The notes beneath the pieces were generated by a model. The model worked only from the letters and a program-made list of their open reading frames with translations, was not told the DNA's origin and did no database searches. Of a DNA stretch of 64,000 bases, positions 30,227-55,900 are shown one piece after another. Source of the stretch: Escherichia virus TH10. Numbering within the stretch: position 1 is the first letter of the stretch; each line of letters opens with the position of its first letter. Where the stretch lies: the sequence record MT446388.1; one strand, 5' to 3'. Position numbers and translations under genes: made by a program.

Positions 30227-30742
30227 TCAACTTAGTTTTGCAAACTCTCCGTGGAGTTTAATAGCAGCTTCACAGTAAGCTTTATGGGCTTCTTCTTCCG
30301 TTGTGTATGTTCCTATATGTATAGTCTTGCCGTTATGGTTAATCTGGGCTATCCACTTACCAGACTTGCTTCTACTTGTACCTTTTAAGTTTTTTGATGT
30401 TCTAGGTTGTCTCCTATTAGACATGTTCTGTTCTTTTGTGGCCTCTCTTAGATTGTCCCAAGCGTTATTCAAACCATCTCCATCTTTGTGGTCAATGTGT
30501 TTGTCAGGCCACTTACCTGTCATCCAGAACCAAGCAATTCGGTGATTACCTGTCCTGTATCCTAAAATCTGTGTGTGCATATACACACCAGACCTTGTGC
30601 GCTTAATTGCTCCGGCTTGGCTTCCAATAACCACCCTACTACTATGTGGAGGTCTGCCAATCCATGTTAAGACCCCTGTTTCGGGGTCATAATCTAACCA
30701 AGATTTTAACTGTTCATGTGTGAATCCACAATCTCTCATCAA
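30227..30742 (-). CDS. HNH homing endonuclease with AP2-like C-terminal DNA-binding domain
   Basis: HIDHKDGDGLNNAWDNLREATKEQN HNH motif; C-terminal GTYTTEEEAHKAYCEAAIKLHGEFA; paralog of 53064..53555. Confidence 0.7.
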   Translation of the reverse strand: MMRDCGFTHEQLKSWLDYDPETGVLTWIGRPPHSSRVVIGSQAGAIKRTRSGVYMHTQILGYRTGNHRIAWFWMTGKWPDKHIDHKDGDGLNNAWDNLREATKEQNMSNRRQPRTSKNLKGTSRSKSGKWIAQINHNGKTIHIGTYTTEEEAHKAYCEAAIKLHGEFAKLS

Positions 30743-46631: not shown

Positions 46632-48776
46632 ATGAACAAAGTACAGATTATTAAAAAGAATGGCTCACTCGAAGAACCTGATATCAAAAAAGTTTTAGCA
46701 GCAGTCACAAAGTCAGCTAATAGGGTTGGGTATAAAGAACTCCCACCAGATGTTACTCAAGCTCTTGAGTCAGCATTTATGAGGATTCTGGTAAAGTCCA
46801 CTAAGCAGAATAATTTGCTAATTTCAGTAAATGATATTCACAGTATTGTTGAGGGTGCTTTGGCAGAAGTCAATCACGAGATTTATGAGTCTTACTCAAC
46901 ATATAGAAATTACCGTAAAGAGGTTGCTCAAAATTGGGATGAACTCTACCAGAAGACTAAAGATACACTCTTCTTAGGTGACCGTGAAAATGCTAACTTT
47001 GACAGCAGTTTAATTTCTACGAAAGGTTCAATTATCCGTGGTTACCTGACTAAAGAAATCTTTAAACAGTATCATCTAACACCAGAGGAACTTGAAGCCA
47101 TTGAGAAAGGCTTTATCTATATCCATGATTTAAGAGACCTGATTTTTGGTGGTATTAACTGTTGCCTGTTTGACATTGGTAAAGTCCTGAAAGGTGGCTT
47201 TGAAATGTCCGGCATTGAGTACTGTGAACCTAAATCTGTACTGTCAGCGTTGCAGGTTATTGGTGACGTAGTACTTTCAGCAACTGCACAGCAATTTGGT
47301 GGTTTTACTTTAGCAGAGATTGATAAGGTACTTGTACCGTATGCTAAGAAGTCTCTACGCTATCATGCTGAGAAAGCATCATCTTATGGTATTCCTAAAG
47401 AGCATTACCACAATTATGTAATGGAGCAGTTACAAATTGAATTAACTCAAGGTTTTCAGTCACTTGAAATGAAACTGAACACTGTACCTTGTAGCCGTGG
47501 TGATTTCGCATTCACAACTTTAACATTTGGTTTACTTGACTCAGACATGTCTAATGAAGACAACCGGCTACAATACATGATTGCAAACACCATTCTTGAT
47601 GTTCGCATGAATGGACAAGGTAAGAGTAAGAAGCCTGTTGTATTCCCTAAACTGGTTTATATTCATGACCAGAAGAGACACGATGAGAATATCTGTCAAG
47701 GCCAACTGTACAGTAAAGCTATTGAGTGTTGCTCTAAAGCAATGTATCCAGATTTCTTAAGCGTATCTGGTCATGGTGCTGTAGCAGAGGCTTTTGAGCG
47801 TTCTGGTAAGGTAATTTCACCGATGGGTTGCAGAGCTTTCTTATCCCCATATCTTAACGAGAATGGAGAAGAGTTCTACGTTGGTCGTGCTAACATTGGT
47901 GCTGTATCTTTGAACTTACCAATGATTTACCAGTATTCTAAAGAGAATGGCTTAGATTTCTGGAAAGAGCTTGATAAGTACCTAGAGATGATTCGCAGCT
48001 TCCACAAGAAACGCTACGAAATGATTGCTAATATGCCAGCAAGTTCTAATCCCCTTGCATTTACACAAGGTGGCCTGTATAAAGGAACTAAGAAGCCTAC
48101 TGACAGGGTTGGTTGGGATATTGTGAAATCCTTCACAGCTTCTTTTGGGGTTACTGCGCTTGATGAGCTATCTGTTCTTGCTGAAGGTAAACGACTTCAT
48201 GAAGTTGGAAGCTATAGTTTTGCATATGATGTTCTGGCATACATCAACATGAAAACTGAAGAATTTAAAAATGAAGATGGCTTCTTATATGCCGTCTATG
48301 GCACTCCAGCAGAATCACTTTGTGGAACTCAGCTAAAACAGTTCAGAGATATGTTTGGAGTTATCAAAGGTGTTTCTGATAAGGAATACTTTACAAACAG
48401 CTTCCATATGAATGTTGCAGCAGACATTACACCATTTGAGAAGCAGGACTTAGAAGAACCCTTCTTCCATATCTGTAGAGGCGGCAGAATCCAGTATGTA
48501 AGGGTAGCTAACCCAGAAAACTTGCCAGCACTTAAAAGTTGTATTACCAGAGGGATGTTGAAGGGTTTTTATCAGGGACTTAACTTTGACTTAGCAATCT
48601 GTGAACATTGTGGTAACAGACCAAAGTCAGATGTTGAAGAGTGTGAAGTTTGCCACTCACATGATATCTCTGTGATTAACAGGGTGTGCGGGTACTTGTC
48701 ATTCACAAAAATTAAAGGTCAGTCTCGAATGAATGACGCTAAGATGGCAGAAATTAAGGATAGGGTTTCTATGTAG
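46632..48776 (+). CDS. nrdD: anaerobic ribonucleotide reductase (class III)
   Basis: C-terminal zinc ribbon CEHCGN...CEVCHS followed by glycyl-radical motif RVCGYL. Confidence 0.85.
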   Translation: MNKVQIIKKNGSLEEPDIKKVLAAVTKSANRVGYKELPPDVTQALESAFMRILVKSTKQNNLLISVNDIHSIVEGALAEVNHEIYESYSTYRNYRKEVAQNWDELYQKTKDTLFLGDRENANFDSSLISTKGSIIRGYLTKEIFKQYHLTPEELEAIEKGFIYIHDLRDLIFGGINCCLFDIGKVLKGGFEMSGIEYCEPKSVLSALQVIGDVVLSATAQQFGGFTLAEIDKVLVPYAKKSLRYHAEKASSYGIPKEHYHNYVMEQLQIELTQGFQSLEMKLNTVPCSRGDFAFTTLTFGLLDSDMSNEDNRLQYMIANTILDVRMNGQGKSKKPVVFPKLVYIHDQKRHDENICQGQLYSKAIECCSKAMYPDFLSVSGHGAVAEAFERSGKVISPMGCRAFLSPYLNENGEEFYVGRANIGAVSLNLPMIYQYSKENGLDFWKELDKYLEMIRSFHKKRYEMIANMPASSNPLAFTQGGLYKGTKKPTDRVGWDIVKSFTASFGVTALDELSVLAEGKRLHEVGSYSFAYDVLAYINMKTEEFKNEDGFLYAVYGTPAESLCGTQLKQFRDMFGVIKGVSDKEYFTNSFHMNVAADITPFEKQDLEEPFFHICRGGRIQYVRVANPENLPALKSCITRGMLKGFYQGLNFDLAICEHCGNRPKSDVEECEVCHSHDISVINRVCGYLSFTKIKGQSRMNDAKMAEIKDRVSM

Positions 48777-48783
48777 CATACAA

Positions 48784-49341
48784 ATGAATTACGAACTAAT
48801 ATATAATGCAATTATTAAGAAGGCACGTTCTGAAAGGGGTGTGCCTCTTACATACTACAAATGTCAAGGTAAGGGTTATGAAAGACACCATATCATACCA
48901 GTATGTCTAGGTGGCGATAAAATTAGTGGAGATAATATTGCTTTACTTACACCTAGAGAGCATTATATAGCTCATAAATTACTGGTTAAGATGTATCCAA
49001 ACAATCATAAGTTATGGTTTGCATGGAACAGGTTAGCTCATGATGGCCTAGATAGGAAAATATCATCCAGAGACTATGAAAAGGTAAGGGCTTTGAACTC
49101 GAAAGCTCTATCTATTGTGAATAAAGGTAGGGTTTTCACTGAAGAACATCGAAGACGATTAGGAGAATCTCAAATAGGCAATACAAAATCAAAAGGTTGT
49201 AAAAGGTCTATAGAAACAAGGAAGAAGATGTCAGAAGCCGGAAAAAAGCCAAAGAAAAAGAAAACTTGCCCTCATTGTGGTATGACTGGTGGTGCTGGTA
49301 ACATGACTCGATATCATTTTGACAATTGTAAGAAAAAATAA
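48784..49341 (+). CDS. HNH homing endonuclease inserted between nrdD and nrdG
   Basis: YERHHIIPVCLGGDKISGDNIALLTPREHYIAH HNH motif; C-terminal CPHCG zinc knuckle; ORF-track version (48733) overlaps nrdD 3' end. Confidence 0.6.
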   Translation: MNYELIYNAIIKKARSERGVPLTYYKCQGKGYERHHIIPVCLGGDKISGDNIALLTPREHYIAHKLLVKMYPNNHKLWFAWNRLAHDGLDRKISSRDYEKVRALNSKALSIVNKGRVFTEEHRRRLGESQIGNTKSKGCKRSIETRKKMSEAGKKPKKKKTCPHCGMTGGAGNMTRYHFDNCKKK

Positions 49342-50133: not shown

Positions 50134-50619
50134 ATGAATTACATGGAGATTCGACCATTTGACACAGCTAATGGTGAAGGGGTTCGGATAAGCCTCTTCG
50201 TAGCTGGCTGTAAACATCACTGTGAAGGCTGCTTTAACAGGGAGTCTTGGAAGTTTAATGCTGGTAAAGAGTTTACTTATGCAAACCTCTACGGTATCAT
50301 TAAGTTAATGGATGATAATGCCATCAGTGGGCTGTCAATACTTGGTGGAGAACCTCTGGATGATAGAAACATTCAAGAGGTTACCAACATATGCAAACGT
50401 ATTAAAACCGTTTACCCAGAAAAATCTATCTGGCTCTGGACAGGTTTTCAGTTACATGAAAAAATTCACCTTGATGTGATGAAATATGTTGACGTGGTGA
50501 TTGATGGTAAGTATGATTCATCTAAACCAACAGTTAAACCATATCGTGGTTCTGATAACCAAAACCTCTGGAGAAAAGAGTATGGATGGCAAGGCGATTG
50601 TCAATGGAGAGCCGAGTAA
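50134..50619 (+). CDS. nrdG: anaerobic ribonucleotide reductase activating protein (radical SAM)
   Basis: CKHHCEGC CxxxCxxC cluster near N-terminus; size 161 aa. Confidence 0.85.
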   Translation: MNYMEIRPFDTANGEGVRISLFVAGCKHHCEGCFNRESWKFNAGKEFTYANLYGIIKLMDDNAISGLSILGGEPLDDRNIQEVTNICKRIKTVYPEKSIWLWTGFQLHEKIHLDVMKYVDVVIDGKYDSSKPTVKPYRGSDNQNLWRKEYGWQGDCQWRAE

Positions 50620-50743: not shown

Positions 50744-51001
50744 ATGGGACTCTGGAATAGTTTTAAATCAAAAGTAAAAGCAGCACTAGCTTCATTAGGT
50801 ATGCTCACTGGTGTTGATGTGACTCACCTTATGCAGAACTTCAATATGGATGAGAAGCTGGCTAATGAGATTATGAAAAGTATCTATGTAGGCCGTGGTA
50901 AAGGTGGTAAGAAACAAGCCCACCGTCCGTCTGGTGCAGCAGCTATTAAACGAGCAGCTAAGAAAGCTCGTAACCGTAAACGTAATAAGAAGGCTAAATA
51001 A
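50744..51001 (+). CDS. small protein with highly basic C-terminus
   Basis: GRGKGGKKQAHRPSGAAAIKRAAKKARNRKRNKKAK tail. Confidence 0.4.
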   Translation: MGLWNSFKSKVKAALASLGMLTGVDVTHLMQNFNMDEKLANEIMKSIYVGRGKGGKKQAHRPSGAAAIKRAAKKARNRKRNKKAK

Positions 51002-51003
51002 TC

Positions 51004-51324
51004 ATGAGCAAAGTTTATAACACTCGTAAATTACAGATTTTCGTACTGTGCCAGTTTATGGCTAAAGAATATAACTTCTACTATTGTGGCACAGGATTCA
51101 TTAGTGACGATGATGGCTCGTATCTACCATTCAAAGAGGCTGTAAAACTCTTCAATGAAGAGAAAAGCTCTAAGAAAGATATTGAAAAGGTTAAGCTAAC
51201 CTACAGCAAGAAAGATAAGAAGATTATCTGCCTAGATAACTTTGTAAAAGTTACTGGAGAAGCAAAAGAGTTTATGGATGAGAGTGAGATTTCATTCACA
51301 AGCATCTTGAAAGTAGCTCAGTAA
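51004..51324 (+). CDS. hypothetical protein
   Basis: 106-aa ORF followed by terminator. Confidence 0.45.
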   Translation: MSKVYNTRKLQIFVLCQFMAKEYNFYYCGTGFISDDDGSYLPFKEAVKLFNEEKSSKKDIEKVKLTYSKKDKKIICLDNFVKVTGEAKEFMDESEISFTSILKVAQ

Positions 51325-51335
51325 ATAGATACTAT

Positions 51336-51366
51336 AAGGGAACTGTAAAGGTTCCCTTTTTATTTT
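51336..51366 (+). terminator. rho-independent terminator
   Basis: gggaac-tgtaaag-gttccc-tttttatttt. Confidence 0.65.
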
Positions 51367-51375
51367 GGAGATGAT

Positions 51376-51891
51376 ATGTATCTGTCAAACCTAAAACGTT
51401 CTGCTGCAATGTCAGTGTTAAGACTCAGCTTTGAGGAACGTCAAGAGTTCATTGACTCCCACCAATACGACCCTTCCAACTCCAATCACATGATTCTCTG
51501 GAATCGTGAGAGTACTCGTGAAAGAGCATTATTCCGATATTACCCACACTACACCATAGATAACCTGTATGAATGTTTTGTTGTGAAGAACACCATTACA
51601 GTGCTCAATAAACTCTGTAGATACACAGGCAGTCAATCCTTCACATTAGGCCATCACAAACCTGTTACAAAGGGTGGTGAGCATCACTGTGCAAACTGGT
51701 TTATTCAGACTAAACTTGATAACCAGAAGCAAGGGGATAACCTTCTAAGCACCCCTAAGATGACCTACGAAGAGCAAGAGAAATATATCAAAAATAATAT
51801 GCCAGATGTGCTTGACAACAACTATACAGATTTGGCAATATCTCTCCTGTTGAAGTTCGAGACAGTTTATAGGGCAACTTACAATGGCTAA
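51376..51891 (+). CDS. hypothetical protein with HNH-like nuclease motif (candidate)
   Basis: LGHHKPVTKGGEHHCANWFIQTKLDNQKQGD resembles an H-N-H core. Confidence 0.35.
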   Translation: MYLSNLKRSAAMSVLRLSFEERQEFIDSHQYDPSNSNHMILWNRESTRERALFRYYPHYTIDNLYECFVVKNTITVLNKLCRYTGSQSFTLGHHKPVTKGGEHHCANWFIQTKLDNQKQGDNLLSTPKMTYEEQEKYIKNNMPDVLDNNYTDLAISLLLKFETVYRATYNG

Positions 51892-52162
51892 AGAAAAGTG
51901 GGAGATTTTACCATTAGTCAGTGAAGGTGGTAATGGTTGTGAGATGTACATGATACGTGGTCATGTTCCAGAACCAATTGCGCTTGAGATGGTAAACAAC
52001 TTTACAGATGGTTCTTACAAAGACTTAGGAGAGCCAACTATAAAGCATCAATGGGTAAAACCTGTACCAGACAGCACAGGTAACTGTAGTGTACTTTACC
52101 ACGTTGTAGACCCTGTAAAATGCAAATCTGCAATGGCAGTAACAAGCGTAACCTTTGATTGA
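51884..52162 (+). CDS. hypothetical protein
   Basis: 92-aa ORF. Confidence 0.4.
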   Translation: MAKEKWEILPLVSEGGNGCEMYMIRGHVPEPIALEMVNNFTDGSYKDLGEPTIKHQWVKPVPDSTGNCSVLYHVVDPVKCKSAMAVTSVTFD

Positions 52163-52173
52163 GAGACAAAACT

Positions 52174-53055
52174 ATGAAAACTGTTATTGAAGCCGTCGTC
52201 ACCGCACAAGAGAAATTCTTCCACACAGAAAAATTTAATATCATCCAATTCCCATCTGGAGAAATTGGTGGAAACTTCTCTGAAGATTTTGTTAAGTTTA
52301 CTGAGCGTAATGCTGGTAAGATTGACAATGTTATACTTACTGTGCAGGGATATGATAAAGATACACTGTTTGCATTAGCTTTGGCTAAGGATGCCGTTGA
52401 CAGTCTTGTTCCCCAGAAATCAGCGATGAAAACCGTTGTTTTCGGGTTCTTACCAAATGCTCGATATGACCGCCACATGTTCAAAGGTGATGCAGCAGCA
52501 CTGAAAGTCTTTGCCAACCTAGTTAATGCAATGGGCTTTGATGCAGTATGTGCTCTTGACCCTCACAGCAATGTTGCAGAAAACCTATTTAAGTGCTTTC
52601 AGAGCATGAAGCAAAAAGATGTGGCAGTACACTTTGCAAGTGACCCACGCATTGATTTCTTGGTAGCCCCAGATGCAGGTGCAGCTAAGAAGACTGAAGA
52701 GACTGCTAAAGAGGTGGATAAACCATATATCACAATGTCTAAAATGCGTAACCTTAAGACTGGTGAAATTACTGGTATGCGAATCCTTGATGATGTTGAT
52801 TTGACCGATAAAACTGTTATGATTCTCGACGATATCTGTGATGGCGGTCGAACCTTCATAGAAGCAGCTAAACATCTTCGTGAAGCAGGTGCAAAACGTG
52901 TGGAACTCTATGTAACTCATGGCATTTTCTCTAAAGGTGTTGAAAGCTTACTTGACAATGGTATTGACCATATCTACACTACAAACACTTTAGGTGAAGC
53001 TAAAGACCGTGGCTTAACACATTACGGTCAAGTGACTGTAGCAACCATTGATTAG
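52174..53055 (+). CDS. prs: ribose-phosphate pyrophosphokinase-like protein (PRPP synthetase family; ADPR-pyrophosphokinase possible)
   Basis: PRPP-binding loop VMILDDICDGGRTF; ATG 52174 after gagaga RBS. Confidence 0.75.
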   Translation: MKTVIEAVVTAQEKFFHTEKFNIIQFPSGEIGGNFSEDFVKFTERNAGKIDNVILTVQGYDKDTLFALALAKDAVDSLVPQKSAMKTVVFGFLPNARYDRHMFKGDAAALKVFANLVNAMGFDAVCALDPHSNVAENLFKCFQSMKQKDVAVHFASDPRIDFLVAPDAGAAKKTEETAKEVDKPYITMSKMRNLKTGEITGMRILDDVDLTDKTVMILDDICDGGRTFIEAAKHLREAGAKRVELYVTHGIFSKGVESLLDNGIDHIYTTNTLGEAKDRGLTHYGQVTVATID

Positions 53056-53063
53056 GTAACAGT

Positions 53064-53555
53064 ATGAATAAGGGTTATTTTGAAAGATACCTAATATATG
53101 AACCAGATACAGGTTTATTAATTTGGAGAGTAACCCTTTGCAGTACCGCTATTGCTGGTAATGTGGCTGGCACAAGGTCTAAGAAGGGTTATACCCAAGT
53201 CCAGATAAATAAGAAGAGGTACTATGCACATAATATTGCATGGATTATGTCTGGAGGTGAGATACCAAGTGGATATGAGATAGACCACATAGACCTTGAT
53301 AAATCTAATAATAAGTTGGATAATTTAAGACTTAGCACAAAGTCACAAAATCAGAGGAATAGGGGTATATACAAGAATAATAAAACTGGTGTGAAGGGTG
53401 TAAGTTTTTGTAAACAAACAGGTCTTTACAAAGCAAGAGTCATGCTTTACCATAAAGAATACTTTTGTGGAAGATTTAAAACGGTAGAAGAAGCAAAAGA
53501 AGCTGTAATTAAAAAGCGAATAGAACTTCATGGTGAGTTTGCAAGACATAACTAA
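53064..53555 (+). CDS. HNH homing endonuclease with AP2-like C-terminal domain
   Basis: YEIDHIDLDKSNNKLDNLRLSTKSQN HNH motif; C-terminal EEAKEAVIKKRIELHGEFA shared with 30227..30742. Confidence 0.7.
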   Translation: MNKGYFERYLIYEPDTGLLIWRVTLCSTAIAGNVAGTRSKKGYTQVQINKKRYYAHNIAWIMSGGEIPSGYEIDHIDLDKSNNKLDNLRLSTKSQNQRNRGIYKNNKTGVKGVSFCKQTGLYKARVMLYHKEYFCGRFKTVEEAKEAVIKKRIELHGEFARHN

Positions 53556-53571
53556 GAGAGAGAGATAAAAT

Positions 53572-55353
53572 ATGAGTAAGTCACTTTACGCAGTACCAGC
53601 AGGTCTTAATGCAGATGCTTACAAGGCATCACATATATATCAGTATCCAGATGCTACGCAATATCTTATGTTGAACCTGACACCACGCAGTGATAAATGG
53701 TTTAACAGCCCCTTAGCAATTGACGGTGTAGTGGCTTTTGGTATTCAACGTTTTGTTAAAGATTACTTGATAGACCACTGGAATGCCACTTTCTTTGAAC
53801 GTGATAAAAGAGAAGCCATTGATGAAATCTTAGAAGTCATGAATGGTGTTCTGGGTAAAGATGCTATCGGTCGAGAGCATTGGGAAGCACTTCACGACTT
53901 AGGTTATCTACCAGTTGAAGTATACGCTGTAGAAGAAGGCACAGTTGTTCCAATGCGTGTCCCGATGATTGTCTTTCAGAACACTGTTTCAGGTTTTCAT
54001 TGGGTAGCAGGTTATCTGGAAGATGCTTTCTCTGCTGAAATTTGGAAGGCTTGCACCATTGCAACTATTGCATTGCATTACAAACGCATCTGTAAGAAGT
54101 GGGCTGACCTTACTTGTGACAATGACTTACATTTACCTTATCAGTGCCATGATTTTGCTATGCGTGGTATGTCCGGCTTTACTGATGACGCATTTAACGC
54201 TGTAGGTCACTTAACCAGCTTTAAAGGGACTGATAGCTTCCCTGCTGTATACACGGCTAAACGAATCTATGGACAGTCCTACCCAATCTCTGATATTGGT
54301 AGTTCTGTACCAGCCACTGAGCACTCTGTAATGTGTGCAAACATTGCTTGGGAAGGTGGTAATGAGTTGATTGAAGAAGAAAGACGCTTTAAAGGTGAGT
54401 TACAAACCTTCCGTCGTTTCTTAACAGAAACTTACCCAACAGGTATTGCAAGCATTGTTTCAGATACTTATAACTTCTGGAGAACTGTGTCAGAAATCTT
54501 ACCAGCACTCCGCAAAGAAATTATGGAACGTGACGGCAAACTGGTAATTCGTCCTGACTCTGGAGACCCTGTACATATTGTCACAGGTTATAAAGCAATC
54601 CACTTAGAGTGTGCTAAGAAGGCTTATTACGAACACCTAAGCAAGCTGGAAGCCAGTGACACAATGTTGAATGCTGTCCTGAACATGAAGCTTGAGAACA
54701 TCAACTATGGTATTGCTGGATGGCTACTGTCAGAAGGCTACGAGATGGTTGTTGACAGAGAAGACTTTGAAGTTGCTGATACAGTGATGTTGAAAAATGC
54801 TTATATGGTTGGTTCTGCAAACGTTGTAACACGTCCTGTAGCTGAGATTGATGGAGCTATTAAGACACTGTACAACATCTTTGGGGGAACTATTAACTCT
54901 AAAGGCTTTAAAGTACTGGATGAACACATTGGCCTTATTTATGGTGACTCTATCACACTGGAACGTGCAAACGAAATCCTGAAGCGTCTGTATGAAATGG
55001 GTTTTGCAAGCTCTAACGTAGTGTTTGGCGTAGGCTCTTACACTTACCAGTACATGACTCGTGACACCTTTGCATTTGCTGTTAAAGCAACTCTTGCAAG
55101 CATTGGTGGTAAAGAGATTATGCTTGCAAAAGACCCTAAAACAGATAGTGGTGTTAAGAAGTCTGCTTTTGGTGGTGTAGCACCTATGTGGGATGGTGAT
55201 AAGTTGAAAGCTGTAGATGGCTATGGATTCCAGAGCTTTGCAGATGTACTTGAACATCCAGCTTGTGCTCTACGTTTAGTCTTTAGTGACTCTGAGCAGT
55301 ACGGTTACACATCTCTTGGTGATATTCGAAATAATATTGACAAGCAGCTTTAA
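53572..55353 (+). CDS. nadV: nicotinamide phosphoribosyltransferase-like protein (NAMPT family)
   Basis: N-terminal NADAYKASHIYQYPDATQY block matching the NAMPT start; 593 aa, longer than typical NAMPT. Confidence 0.7.
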   Translation: MSKSLYAVPAGLNADAYKASHIYQYPDATQYLMLNLTPRSDKWFNSPLAIDGVVAFGIQRFVKDYLIDHWNATFFERDKREAIDEILEVMNGVLGKDAIGREHWEALHDLGYLPVEVYAVEEGTVVPMRVPMIVFQNTVSGFHWVAGYLEDAFSAEIWKACTIATIALHYKRICKKWADLTCDNDLHLPYQCHDFAMRGMSGFTDDAFNAVGHLTSFKGTDSFPAVYTAKRIYGQSYPISDIGSSVPATEHSVMCANIAWEGGNELIEEERRFKGELQTFRRFLTETYPTGIASIVSDTYNFWRTVSEILPALRKEIMERDGKLVIRPDSGDPVHIVTGYKAIHLECAKKAYYEHLSKLEASDTMLNAVLNMKLENINYGIAGWLLSEGYEMVVDREDFEVADTVMLKNAYMVGSANVVTRPVAEIDGAIKTLYNIFGGTINSKGFKVLDEHIGLIYGDSITLERANEILKRLYEMGFASSNVVFGVGSYTYQYMTRDTFAFAVKATLASIGGKEIMLAKDPKTDSGVKKSAFGGVAPMWDGDKLKAVDGYGFQSFADVLEHPACALRLVFSDSEQYGYTSLGDIRNNIDKQL

Positions 55354-55366
55354 AAGTATATGATAA

Positions 55367-55390
55367 GAGGCTCCTACGGGAGCCTTTTTA
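55367..55390 (+). terminator. rho-independent terminator
   Basis: aggctcc-tacg-ggagcct-ttttt. Confidence 0.7.
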
Positions 55391-55406: not shown

Positions 55407-55742
55407 ATGAAAATCAAAGAAATGAACATCAACATTGTCTTAGAAGAACGTTGGGAGAACATCAAGAAGCCTGAAGATGGCCATAAGTTTCTTAACAAAA
55501 TTTTAGTAGCAGCTAAAGAAGAACTAACTGGCAAGGTCGCAGCAGCAATTACAATAAAGGTCTGTGTAAAAGGTCTTCCAGATAATCACCAATTTGCACT
55601 TGACGAGTTTAAAGAAAGCTTCTACAATCCAAACAAACAGATGCTTGAAAGTAACTTTGCAGTGTCTACAAGTATCGTCCATGACAGAAGCTTTATCCTT
55701 TACAAGAATATGAGAGGTGAGTCATGCAAGCATATTGGATAG
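55407..55742 (+). CDS. hypothetical protein
   Basis: 111-aa ORF. Confidence 0.45.
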   Translation: MKIKEMNINIVLEERWENIKKPEDGHKFLNKILVAAKEELTGKVAAAITIKVCVKGLPDNHQFALDEFKESFYNPNKQMLESNFAVSTSIVHDRSFILYKNMRGESCKHIG

Positions 55743-55900
55743 AAATTTTACTGTCACTTGGTAGTGTAGCAGTTCTTGTTTATCTTCTTTGTAAGTACTT
55801 TGCAGAACACAAGAAGTGTGACTACTGTAACGGAGAAGGGTATACAAGAGCAGGTTGTTGCCCTATGTGTGGTGGTTCTGGTAAAATGTTTAATAAGTAA
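55724..55900 (+). CDS. small membrane-anchored zinc-ribbon protein (58 aa, absent from ORF track)
   Basis: ATG 55724 to TAA 55898-55900; MQAYWIEILLSLGSVAVLVYLLCKYFAEHKKCDYCNGEGYTRAGCCPMCGGSGKMFNK: one TM segment plus CxxC...CxxC. Confidence 0.35.
   Translation: MQAYWIEILLSLGSVAVLVYLLCKYFAEHKKCDYCNGEGYTRAGCCPMCGGSGKMFNK

Follow-up and report, generated by a model that had tools for sequence, protein, structure and literature searches.

NARP1 is a phage counter-defense pathway that rebuilds nicotinamide adenine dinucleotide (NAD+) with the aid of two enzymes, Adps and Namat, and it was discovered from genes 79-80 of the BASEL phage Bas63 (Osterman et al., bioRxiv 10.1101/2024.02.11.579819). 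Bas63 is the phage JohannRWettstein (MZ501086), a member of the genus Felixounavirus according to the NCBI taxonomy and its GenBank record. Here we analyze a stretch of 64,000 nucleotides (nt) from Escherichia virus TH10 (MT446388.1; the whole stretch is referred to as the window) and describe a three-gene locus at positions 52174-55353 that is very probably the NARP1 counter-defense operon of a Felixounavirus, orthologous to the founding operon of Bas63.

When gp79-80 are removed, Bas63 forms about 20-fold fewer plaques on cells carrying SIR2-HerA, and the loss of NAD+ becomes deeper; ADPR-PP, the pyrophosphorylated form of ADP-ribose (ADPR), was detected only for the wild-type phage in defense-carrying cells (bioRxiv 10.1101/2024.02.11.579819). 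Since the Bas63 protein "did not purify well", the chemistry of NARP1 was demonstrated on homologues from the Bacillus phage SpbetaL1: its Adps converts ADPR and ATP to ADPR-PP in vitro, and Namat joins ADPR-PP and nicotinamide to form NAD+, favoring ADPR-PP over phosphoribosyl pyrophosphate (PRPP) (bioRxiv 10.1101/2024.02.11.579819). The NARP1 enzymes of the mycobacteriophage DyoEdafos are likewise active in vitro. In the published NARP1 work, Bas63 gp79 was one of the queries that defined the Adps clade, and 97% of the genes in this clade immediately adjoin namat on the same strand; the accompanying survey found no phage that possesses both NARP1 and NARP2. Namat itself was defined by an adenine "selectivity clamp" in a structural paper of 2026 (PMC12774641).

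Judged by its DNA, the window comes from the genome of a Felixounavirus (a Felix O1-like phage): over 200 such phages, with Escherichia, Salmonella, Shigella and Citrobacter as hosts, match the region under study at 92-96% identity, and a further 25 kb of the window reach at best 96.4% DNA identity to known Felixounaviruses. Three close-set open reading frames (ORFs) make up the locus; they code for a Prs-family protein, an HNH endonuclease and a NAMPT-family protein, and GenBank records label them ribose-phosphate pyrophosphokinase, HNH (homing) endonuclease and nicotinamide phosphoribosyltransferase. All three genes, and with them the motifs mapped below, lie on the plus strand. By their identity to Bas63 gp79 and gp80, the outer genes are adps (52174..53055; start codon ATG at 52174; 293 amino acids), coding for the ADPR pyrophosphokinase of NARP1, and namat (53572..55353; 593 amino acids), coding for its nicotinamide ADPR-transferase. 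A check of the coordinates gives 516 nt between the stop codon of the former and the ATG of the latter; the HNH gene (53064..53555; 163 amino acids) fills this spacer except for 8 nt before it and 16 nt behind it, and is the only gene between these two co-oriented neighbors. In the window as in Bas63, the operon is positioned between nrdG (50134-50619 in the window) and rIIA.

A previous sequence-only reading of this DNA had recognized a Prs-family gene with the loop DDICDGGRT and a NAMPT-family gene of 593 residues, and both identifications hold. It had placed the genes 517 bp apart, which is right for their order and near distance and one nucleotide more than the measured gap, and it had proposed a variant pathway in which an ADPR pyrophosphokinase works with a nicotinamide ADPR-transferase. 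This variant is NARP1, and the identities of 98% and 97% to the Bas63 proteins bear the proposal out. Our assignment builds directly on the orthology with Bas63, on conserved catalytic and adenine-clamp residues, on gene adjacency and on the absence of an NMNAT motif; we infer the chemistry and the anti-defense effect from published in vivo studies of Bas63 and in vitro studies of SpbetaL1 and DyoEdafos. The system is thus already known, and the interpretation of the locus as a module for NAD+ reconstitution is supported.

The Adps protein of the window is identical to Bas63 gp79 at 287 of 293 positions (98%), without gaps and at equal length, so that six residues differ. It passes the NCBIfam model TIGR01251 (ribP_PPkin) at 137 bits (cut-off 113), matches the Pfam families Pribosyltran (PF00156) and Pribosyl_synth (PF14572), and belongs to PHROG 619 (E 2e-98). 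The ribose-phosphate binding loop DDICDGGRT, confirmed by translation, occupies residues 219-227 (52828..52854) within the Pribosyltran match. Alignment and a coordinate check place a flexible loop, K190-M191-R192, at 52741..52749; its K190 and R192 align with the Lys and Arg of human PRPS1 and the Sulfolobus Prs, K190 standing at the position of the catalytic lysine. The corresponding residues of the Bacillus subtilis Prs (K197) and of the SpbetaL1 Adps (K162) are essential (published NARP1 work). Through the alignments with human PRPS1 and the Sulfolobus Prs we infer that K190 is the equivalent of SpbetaL1 K162, and the protein retains the catalytic flexible-loop lysine expected of a NARP1 Adps. 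With its 98% identity to gp79, on which this placement rests, the protein is assigned to the phage Adps clade and not to the cellular Prs enzymes.

Two diverged alleles of adps exist among Felixounaviruses over codons 1-180 (window 52100-52700). The allele shared by the window and Bas63 is found with at least 90% identity in about 55 records, and the other, at about 78-82% identity, in about 200 records, for example those of phages VpaE1 and Felix O1. Relative to VpaE1, the N-terminal 180 codons show about 1.6 synonymous substitutions per synonymous site (dS) and 0.21 non-synonymous substitutions per non-synonymous site (dN), with a dS of 0.18 in the neighboring namat. This pattern suggests that adps is a mosaic or recombinant gene under purifying selection.

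The case for Namat is carried by both its sequence and its predicted structure. The protein matches the NCBIfam model PRK09198 (E 8e-141) and the Pfam families NAPRTase and NAMPT_N, and it is identical to Bas63 gp80 at 578 of 593 positions (97%), again without gaps and at equal length, with 15 differing residues. Among solved structures its best match is the SpbetaL1 Namat (9w5w/9w5x; E 8e-129), followed by the NadV protein of Haemophilus ducreyi (E 1.5e-105), the Xanthomonas Nampt (1e-51) and human NAMPT (about 1e-41). An AlphaFold model of high confidence (predicted local distance difference test, pLDDT, 93; predicted TM-score, pTM, 0.91) superposes best on the SpbetaL1 Namat in a fold search, with a target-normalized TM-score of 0.95.

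Both parts of the selectivity clamp can be recognized. The selectivity-clamp loop (SCL), located by mapping residues to R40 of the SpbetaL1 enzyme, reads SDKWFNSPLAI (residues 40-50; 53689..53721), and K42-W43 occupy its adenine-stacking position. S40-D41-K42-W43 are identical to Bas63, whose type of SCL has a lysine followed by a stacking fourth residue (PMC12774641); the loop therefore carries the Arg, Lys or Tyr at the third position, or the stacking residue beside it, by which an SCL is recognized. The selectivity-clamp helix (SCH) bears the motif GSYTYQYMTRD (residues 488-498; 55033..55065), which fits the published Namat consensus and resembles the GSFTYQYNTRD of SpbetaL1; the control sequences of the H. 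ducreyi NadV (GAQTYQRNTRD) and the Xanthomonas Nampt (GGALLQKVDRD) do not fit. All mapped ligand contacts are either identical to those of the SpbetaL1 Namat (D15, Y17, F195, R198, D221, A248, R327, D329, G458, D459, G488, S489, Y494, T496, R497 and D498) or conservatively replaced (SpbetaL1 S190 by A196, A362 by S460 and F392 by Y490). The identical set includes the five residues of the Namat core, F195, R198, D221, R327 and D329, which correspond to F189, R192, D215, R306 and D308 of SpbetaL1. Also kept is H251, the presumed catalytic histidine, in the conserved segment ATEHS.

Several observations on Namat proteins in other records deserve mention. In the record of phage ekra (L001, 7669-9354), the start of the namat coding sequence is set 32 codons late, giving a protein of 561 instead of 593 residues and dropping D15 and Y17, two residues that bind the nicotinamide of the partner protomer; the late start found in some GenBank records is probably a misannotated start codon. 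Chromosomes of Klebsiella, Cronobacter, Kosakonia and Phytobacter encode homologues of 496 residues (P0066, P0070, P0084, P0106 and others) that are 46-48% identical and whose motif, GSFTYQYNTRD, is of the Namat and not of the NadV type; in sequence they are consistent with the bacterial NARP1 homologues of PMC12774641. The profile of PHROG 12872, 547 positions long, aligns to Adps through its N-terminal part (33-224) and to Namat through its C-terminal part (236-534), which suggests that some phages possess fused Adps-Namat proteins, and the N- and C-terminal halves of Namat have PHROGs of their own, 16547 and 15800, so that split versions may exist.

The same pair of enzyme families could in principle serve a classical salvage route, in which the Prs-like enzyme makes PRPP, the NAMPT-like enzyme makes nicotinamide mononucleotide (NMN), and the host NadR or PncC completes NAD+. 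The family models, namely ribose-phosphate diphosphokinase and nicotinate/nicotinamide phosphoribosyltransferase, and all GenBank records agree with such a route, and Namat enzymes can still make some NMN from PRPP in vitro. Bas63, which shares 97-98% protein identity with the window, nevertheless protects independently of the host pncC and nadR (bioRxiv 10.1101/2024.02.11.579819) and accumulates ADPR-PP; moreover, the SpbetaL1 Adps yields no product in a Prs assay, and the clamp aromatics specific for the use of ADPR-PP are present in the Namat of the window. For orthologues of Bas63 the classical route is thus largely refuted, and we consider it highly improbable here. NARP2 was also considered and rejected: neither an HxGH motif nor a Nudix box occurs in any ORF of at least 60 amino acids in the six frames of the 64-kb window, a motif test that leaves about 23 kb of the roughly 87-kb genome outside. 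The sequence-only reading had likewise noted that the window lacks an NMNAT with HxGH.

In the pathway that we favor, NARP1, a NADase effector of the host (SIR2-HerA, Thoeris, DSR1/2, SEFIR and others) would split NAD+ into ADPR and nicotinamide. Adps (52174-53055) would then pyrophosphorylate ADPR at its terminal ribose at the expense of ATP, and Namat (53572-55353) would exchange the pyrophosphate of the resulting ADPR-PP for nicotinamide, giving NAD+ directly. The coenzyme would in this way be rebuilt without NMN as an intermediate and without an NMNAT. The HNH gene, which has taken the place of a 45-nt spacer containing a hairpin, stands outside the pathway.

The middle gene codes for a free-standing homing endonuclease of the HNH_3 type, possibly with an AP2 domain. 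Its product matches Pfam HNH_3 over the full length of the profile (positions 1-46 of 46; E 2e-19), PHROG 99 (HNH endonuclease; E 2e-67) and altogether 15 PHROG families labeled HNH endonuclease. The AP2 match reaches 21 bits against a cut-off of 33.3 bits, so that this label is merely suggestive; of the HNH-AP2 endonuclease that the sequence-only reading had placed alone between the two genes, the HNH part and the position therefore stand, and the AP2 part falls below the threshold. Its statement that a homing endonuclease splits the module applies to the pair of genes and to neither gene itself, as the insertion lies in the intergenic spacer. In Bas63 there is no gene between adps and namat but a 45-nt spacer with the hairpin GGGGCTTGAAAGCCCC followed by ATTTT, and one record has an annotated terminator at the uninterrupted junction. 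The junctions of the insertion, read directly from the sequence, show that the HNH gene replaces the 45-nt spacer in the window, with the coding sequences on either side and the purine-rich stretch ahead of namat preserved.

The HNH gene is present in 61 phage records, Felix O1 among them; the uninterrupted junction, which most of 201 records yield as a single piece, is the commoner state. Compared with its copy in VpaE1, the gene differs at 2 of 492 nt, and the flanks are far more diverged, with dS values of 0.18 in namat and of 0.42-1.6 in adps. A nearly identical gene between diverged flanks is what marks a mobile gene in recent spread. From its HNH domain, and from presence and absence at one locus with signs of lateral spread, we conclude that this is, as far as sequence comparison can tell, an optional, laterally spreading homing-endonuclease gene and not part of the pathway. 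The locus varies even among close derivatives, since the VpaE1-derived record ev035 (LR699048.1) has the uninterrupted junction, whereas VpaE1 (KM657822.1), ev078 and ev108 carry the HNH gene. A paralogue with 38.5% identity over 161 amino acids (tblastn E 2e-23) is found on the minus strand of the window at 30236-30709 and is presumably a second free-standing homing-endonuclease gene.

The arrival of such a gene might have disabled the operon, or uncoupled it, by replacing the native spacer and parting adps from namat. The loss of the Bas63-type 45-nt spacer with its hairpin, and the fact that the uninterrupted junction prevails in the genus, would fit this idea; the coding evidence runs the other way. 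The ORFs of adps and namat are intact and of full length, each with a purine-rich ribosome-binding stretch, and both show dN/dS ratios of 0.04-0.13 relative to the copies of VpaE1, which is indicative of purifying selection. In addition, 61 records retain the three-gene arrangement, the three genes are co-oriented, 8 and 16 nt apart, and the terminator-like hairpins that bracket the unit in a consensus scan stand outside it. A disabled operon appears even less probable to us than the classical salvage route.

Alternatively, the middle gene could be read as a third enzyme of an extended NARP1, as in NARP1-AP with its Macro-domain phosphatase Adpp or in RyDEP operons, for it occupies the position that Adpp has in the Vibrio phage Gary and RyDEP in DyoEdafos. 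Its HNH_3 and PHROG matches and its optional, mobile-element behavior within the genus contradict this, and neither Pfam nor the PHROGs yield a Macro or RyR match for its product. A Macro or RyR accessory enzyme was therefore rejected; without either domain in the middle gene, the locus is not one of the published three-gene extensions, and we regard this option as scarcely credible. By the published logic, the HNH identity of the third gene implies that this phage should stay sensitive to aRES-type defense.

With the assignment of the locus to NARP1 in place, the length of Namat remains to be explained. Relative to the SpbetaL1 enzyme, the protein contains a small internal insertion, AWEGGNELIEEERRF (residues 259-273, 15 residues; 54346..54390), seen as a gap in an HMMER alignment and lying in a variable region, and a large one of 84 residues (344-427; 54601..54852), for which AlphaFold predicts, with high confidence, a small alpha/beta subdomain. 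Both are also found in the Bas63 Namat. The sequence-only reading had suspected an extra domain, and the folded internal insertion, shared with Bas63, makes this partly right; the C-terminal extension it had envisaged is not there, the additional residues being internal. An ORF fused through a sequencing frameshift, which it had named as a possible cause of the 593 residues, is ruled out, because Bas63 shares both length and sequence, about 200 phage records match Namat at 95-99% protein identity, and the same length recurs in more than 200 genomes.

In an alignment of 30 sequences, the large insertion is common to a clade of about 590 residues from Felixounavirus-like and related phages, in which its sequence is variable, and it is absent from the homologues of 496 residues, including the chromosomal ones of enterobacteria that bear the Namat motif. 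No fold in the PDB matches it, no solved Namat or Nampt contains it, and the main text of the structural paper (PMC12774641) never uses the word "insertion". This clade-specific segment is the sole part of our findings without an existing explanation. It might serve to dock Adps for channeling of the labile ADPR-PP, to regulate the enzyme allosterically or to evade an inhibitor of the host. We advance with considerable reserve, as an unlikely though by no means far-fetched proposal, that residues 344-427 add a function that the SpbetaL1 enzyme lacks and that, separately, the presence or absence of the HNH gene tunes expression of the operon; the latter could be so because the hairpin that this gene displaces from between adps and namat is terminator-like.

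Three points weigh against the assignment of the locus to NARP1. The in vitro work was carried out on homologues that are about 34% (Adps) and 38% (Namat) identical, not on proteins of the Felixounavirus type. The HNH gene stands where Bas63 has an intergenic hairpin, which may bear on the co-expression of the two enzymes. Finally, raw similarity fails to place the Adps of the window nearer to the SpbetaL1 Adps (tblastn E 1e-17) than to cellular Prs entries in the PDB (E 1e-18 to 1e-14), and because this measure does not discriminate, the assignment of Adps rests on its identity to Bas63 gp79 and on its adjacency to namat. In the alignment against characterized enzymes that the sequence-only reading had recommended, Namat is nearest to the SpbetaL1 Namat, and Adps is not told apart from Prs.

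The wider surroundings of the operon were also inspected. A terminator-like hairpin with a following T-run at 51336..51358 (plus strand), upstream of a block comprising gp77, gp78, adps, the HNH gene and namat, is the probable end of the preceding transcription unit, and a second one with 10 pairs and a T-run at 55365..55388 (plus strand), 12 nt past the stop codon of namat, is the probable end of this unit; together they possibly flank a single gp77-gp78-adps-HNH-namat unit. These hairpins come from consensus scans alone, and as such a scan gave three sites in 5.2 kb where 3.0 are expected, the one at 51336..51358 is weak evidence by itself. Two conserved ORFs directly precede adps within this block (51376-52162): one of 171 amino acids (PHROG 3500) with a weak HNH-like match, and one of 92 amino acids (PHROG 4726). 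Neither in Pfam nor in the PHROGs do the small flanking ORFs (51004-52162 and 55407-55900) match a Macro or RyR domain. Further upstream, the segment 50600-50900 is 51-65% identical to Bas63 and ekra versus 93-96% to VpaE1, a small replaced segment around a lysine-rich ORF of 85 amino acids at 50744-51001. An ORF of 202 amino acids upstream of nrdG (48733-49341), with a NUMOD3 motif and a weak match to colicin/pyocin DNases (HNH-like), is probably another homing-endonuclease-like gene.

The NARP1 pathway, its chemistry and its anti-defense role were published in 2024 from a phage of the same genus with nearly identical proteins, and our analysis adds nothing conceptually to them; a literature search on Felixounavirus and NARP1 found no paper, and one that paired Felix O1 with the names of the enzymes gave genome descriptions and unrelated work only. 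Its value lies elsewhere. The database labels Prs and NadV/NAMPT for these genes should, in our view, be replaced by Adps and Namat, and the namat starts set 32 codons late in some records cut off the active-site residues D15 and Y17. When Felixounaviruses are used in biocontrol or therapy, resistance to NAD+ depletion of the SIR2, Thoeris and DSR type can be expected.

Among the described systems, canonical NadV and Nampt enzymes (H. ducreyi NadV, 9KE8; Xanthomonas Nampt, 7YQO; human NAMPT) share the fold and the catalytic residues of Namat but lack the aromatics at clamp positions 3 and 7 as well as the insertions. NARP2 of the Vibrio phage KVP40 (Nampt plus Nmnat/Nudix) also restores NAD+ on the phage side with a NAMPT-family enzyme, yet it uses PRPP and needs Nmnat, whereas the window combines a Namat clamp with an adjacent adps and no HxGH or Nudix motif was found in it. 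In NARP1-AP (Adps-Adpp-Namat, Vibrio phage Gary) and RyDEP-NARP1 (mycobacteriophage DyoEdafos), a third gene stands between or beside adps and namat as it does here, but there it codes for a Macro-domain phosphatase or an RyR-domain glycosidase in place of an HNH endonuclease. The HNH gene itself resembles the free-standing homing endonucleases of lytic phages (PHROG 99, HNH_3) in its intergenic site, its presence/absence polymorphism and a conservation well above that of its flanks, with weak support for an AP2 DNA-binding domain in the window. With NARP1 of the Bacillus phage SpbetaL1 (Namat crystals 9W5W and 9W5X; PMC12774641), the locus shares the two-enzyme logic, the catalytic core of Namat, the SCH motif GSxTYQYxTRD and a fold that superposes with a target-normalized TM-score of 0.95. 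It differs from it in sequence (about 38% identity for Namat and about 34%, over a partial alignment that begins only at residue 92 of the Adps of the window, for Adps), in the 84- and 15-residue insertions that SpbetaL1 Namat lacks, and in the clamp loop, where K42-W43 stand in place of R40. By far the closest is NARP1 of Bas63, which agrees with the locus in genus, in its position between nrdG and rIIA, in the protein lengths of 293 and 593 amino acids, in identities of 98% and 97% and in the clamp residues, and which is set apart by 6 and 15 differing residues and by a 45-nt hairpin spacer where the window has the 492-nt HNH gene.

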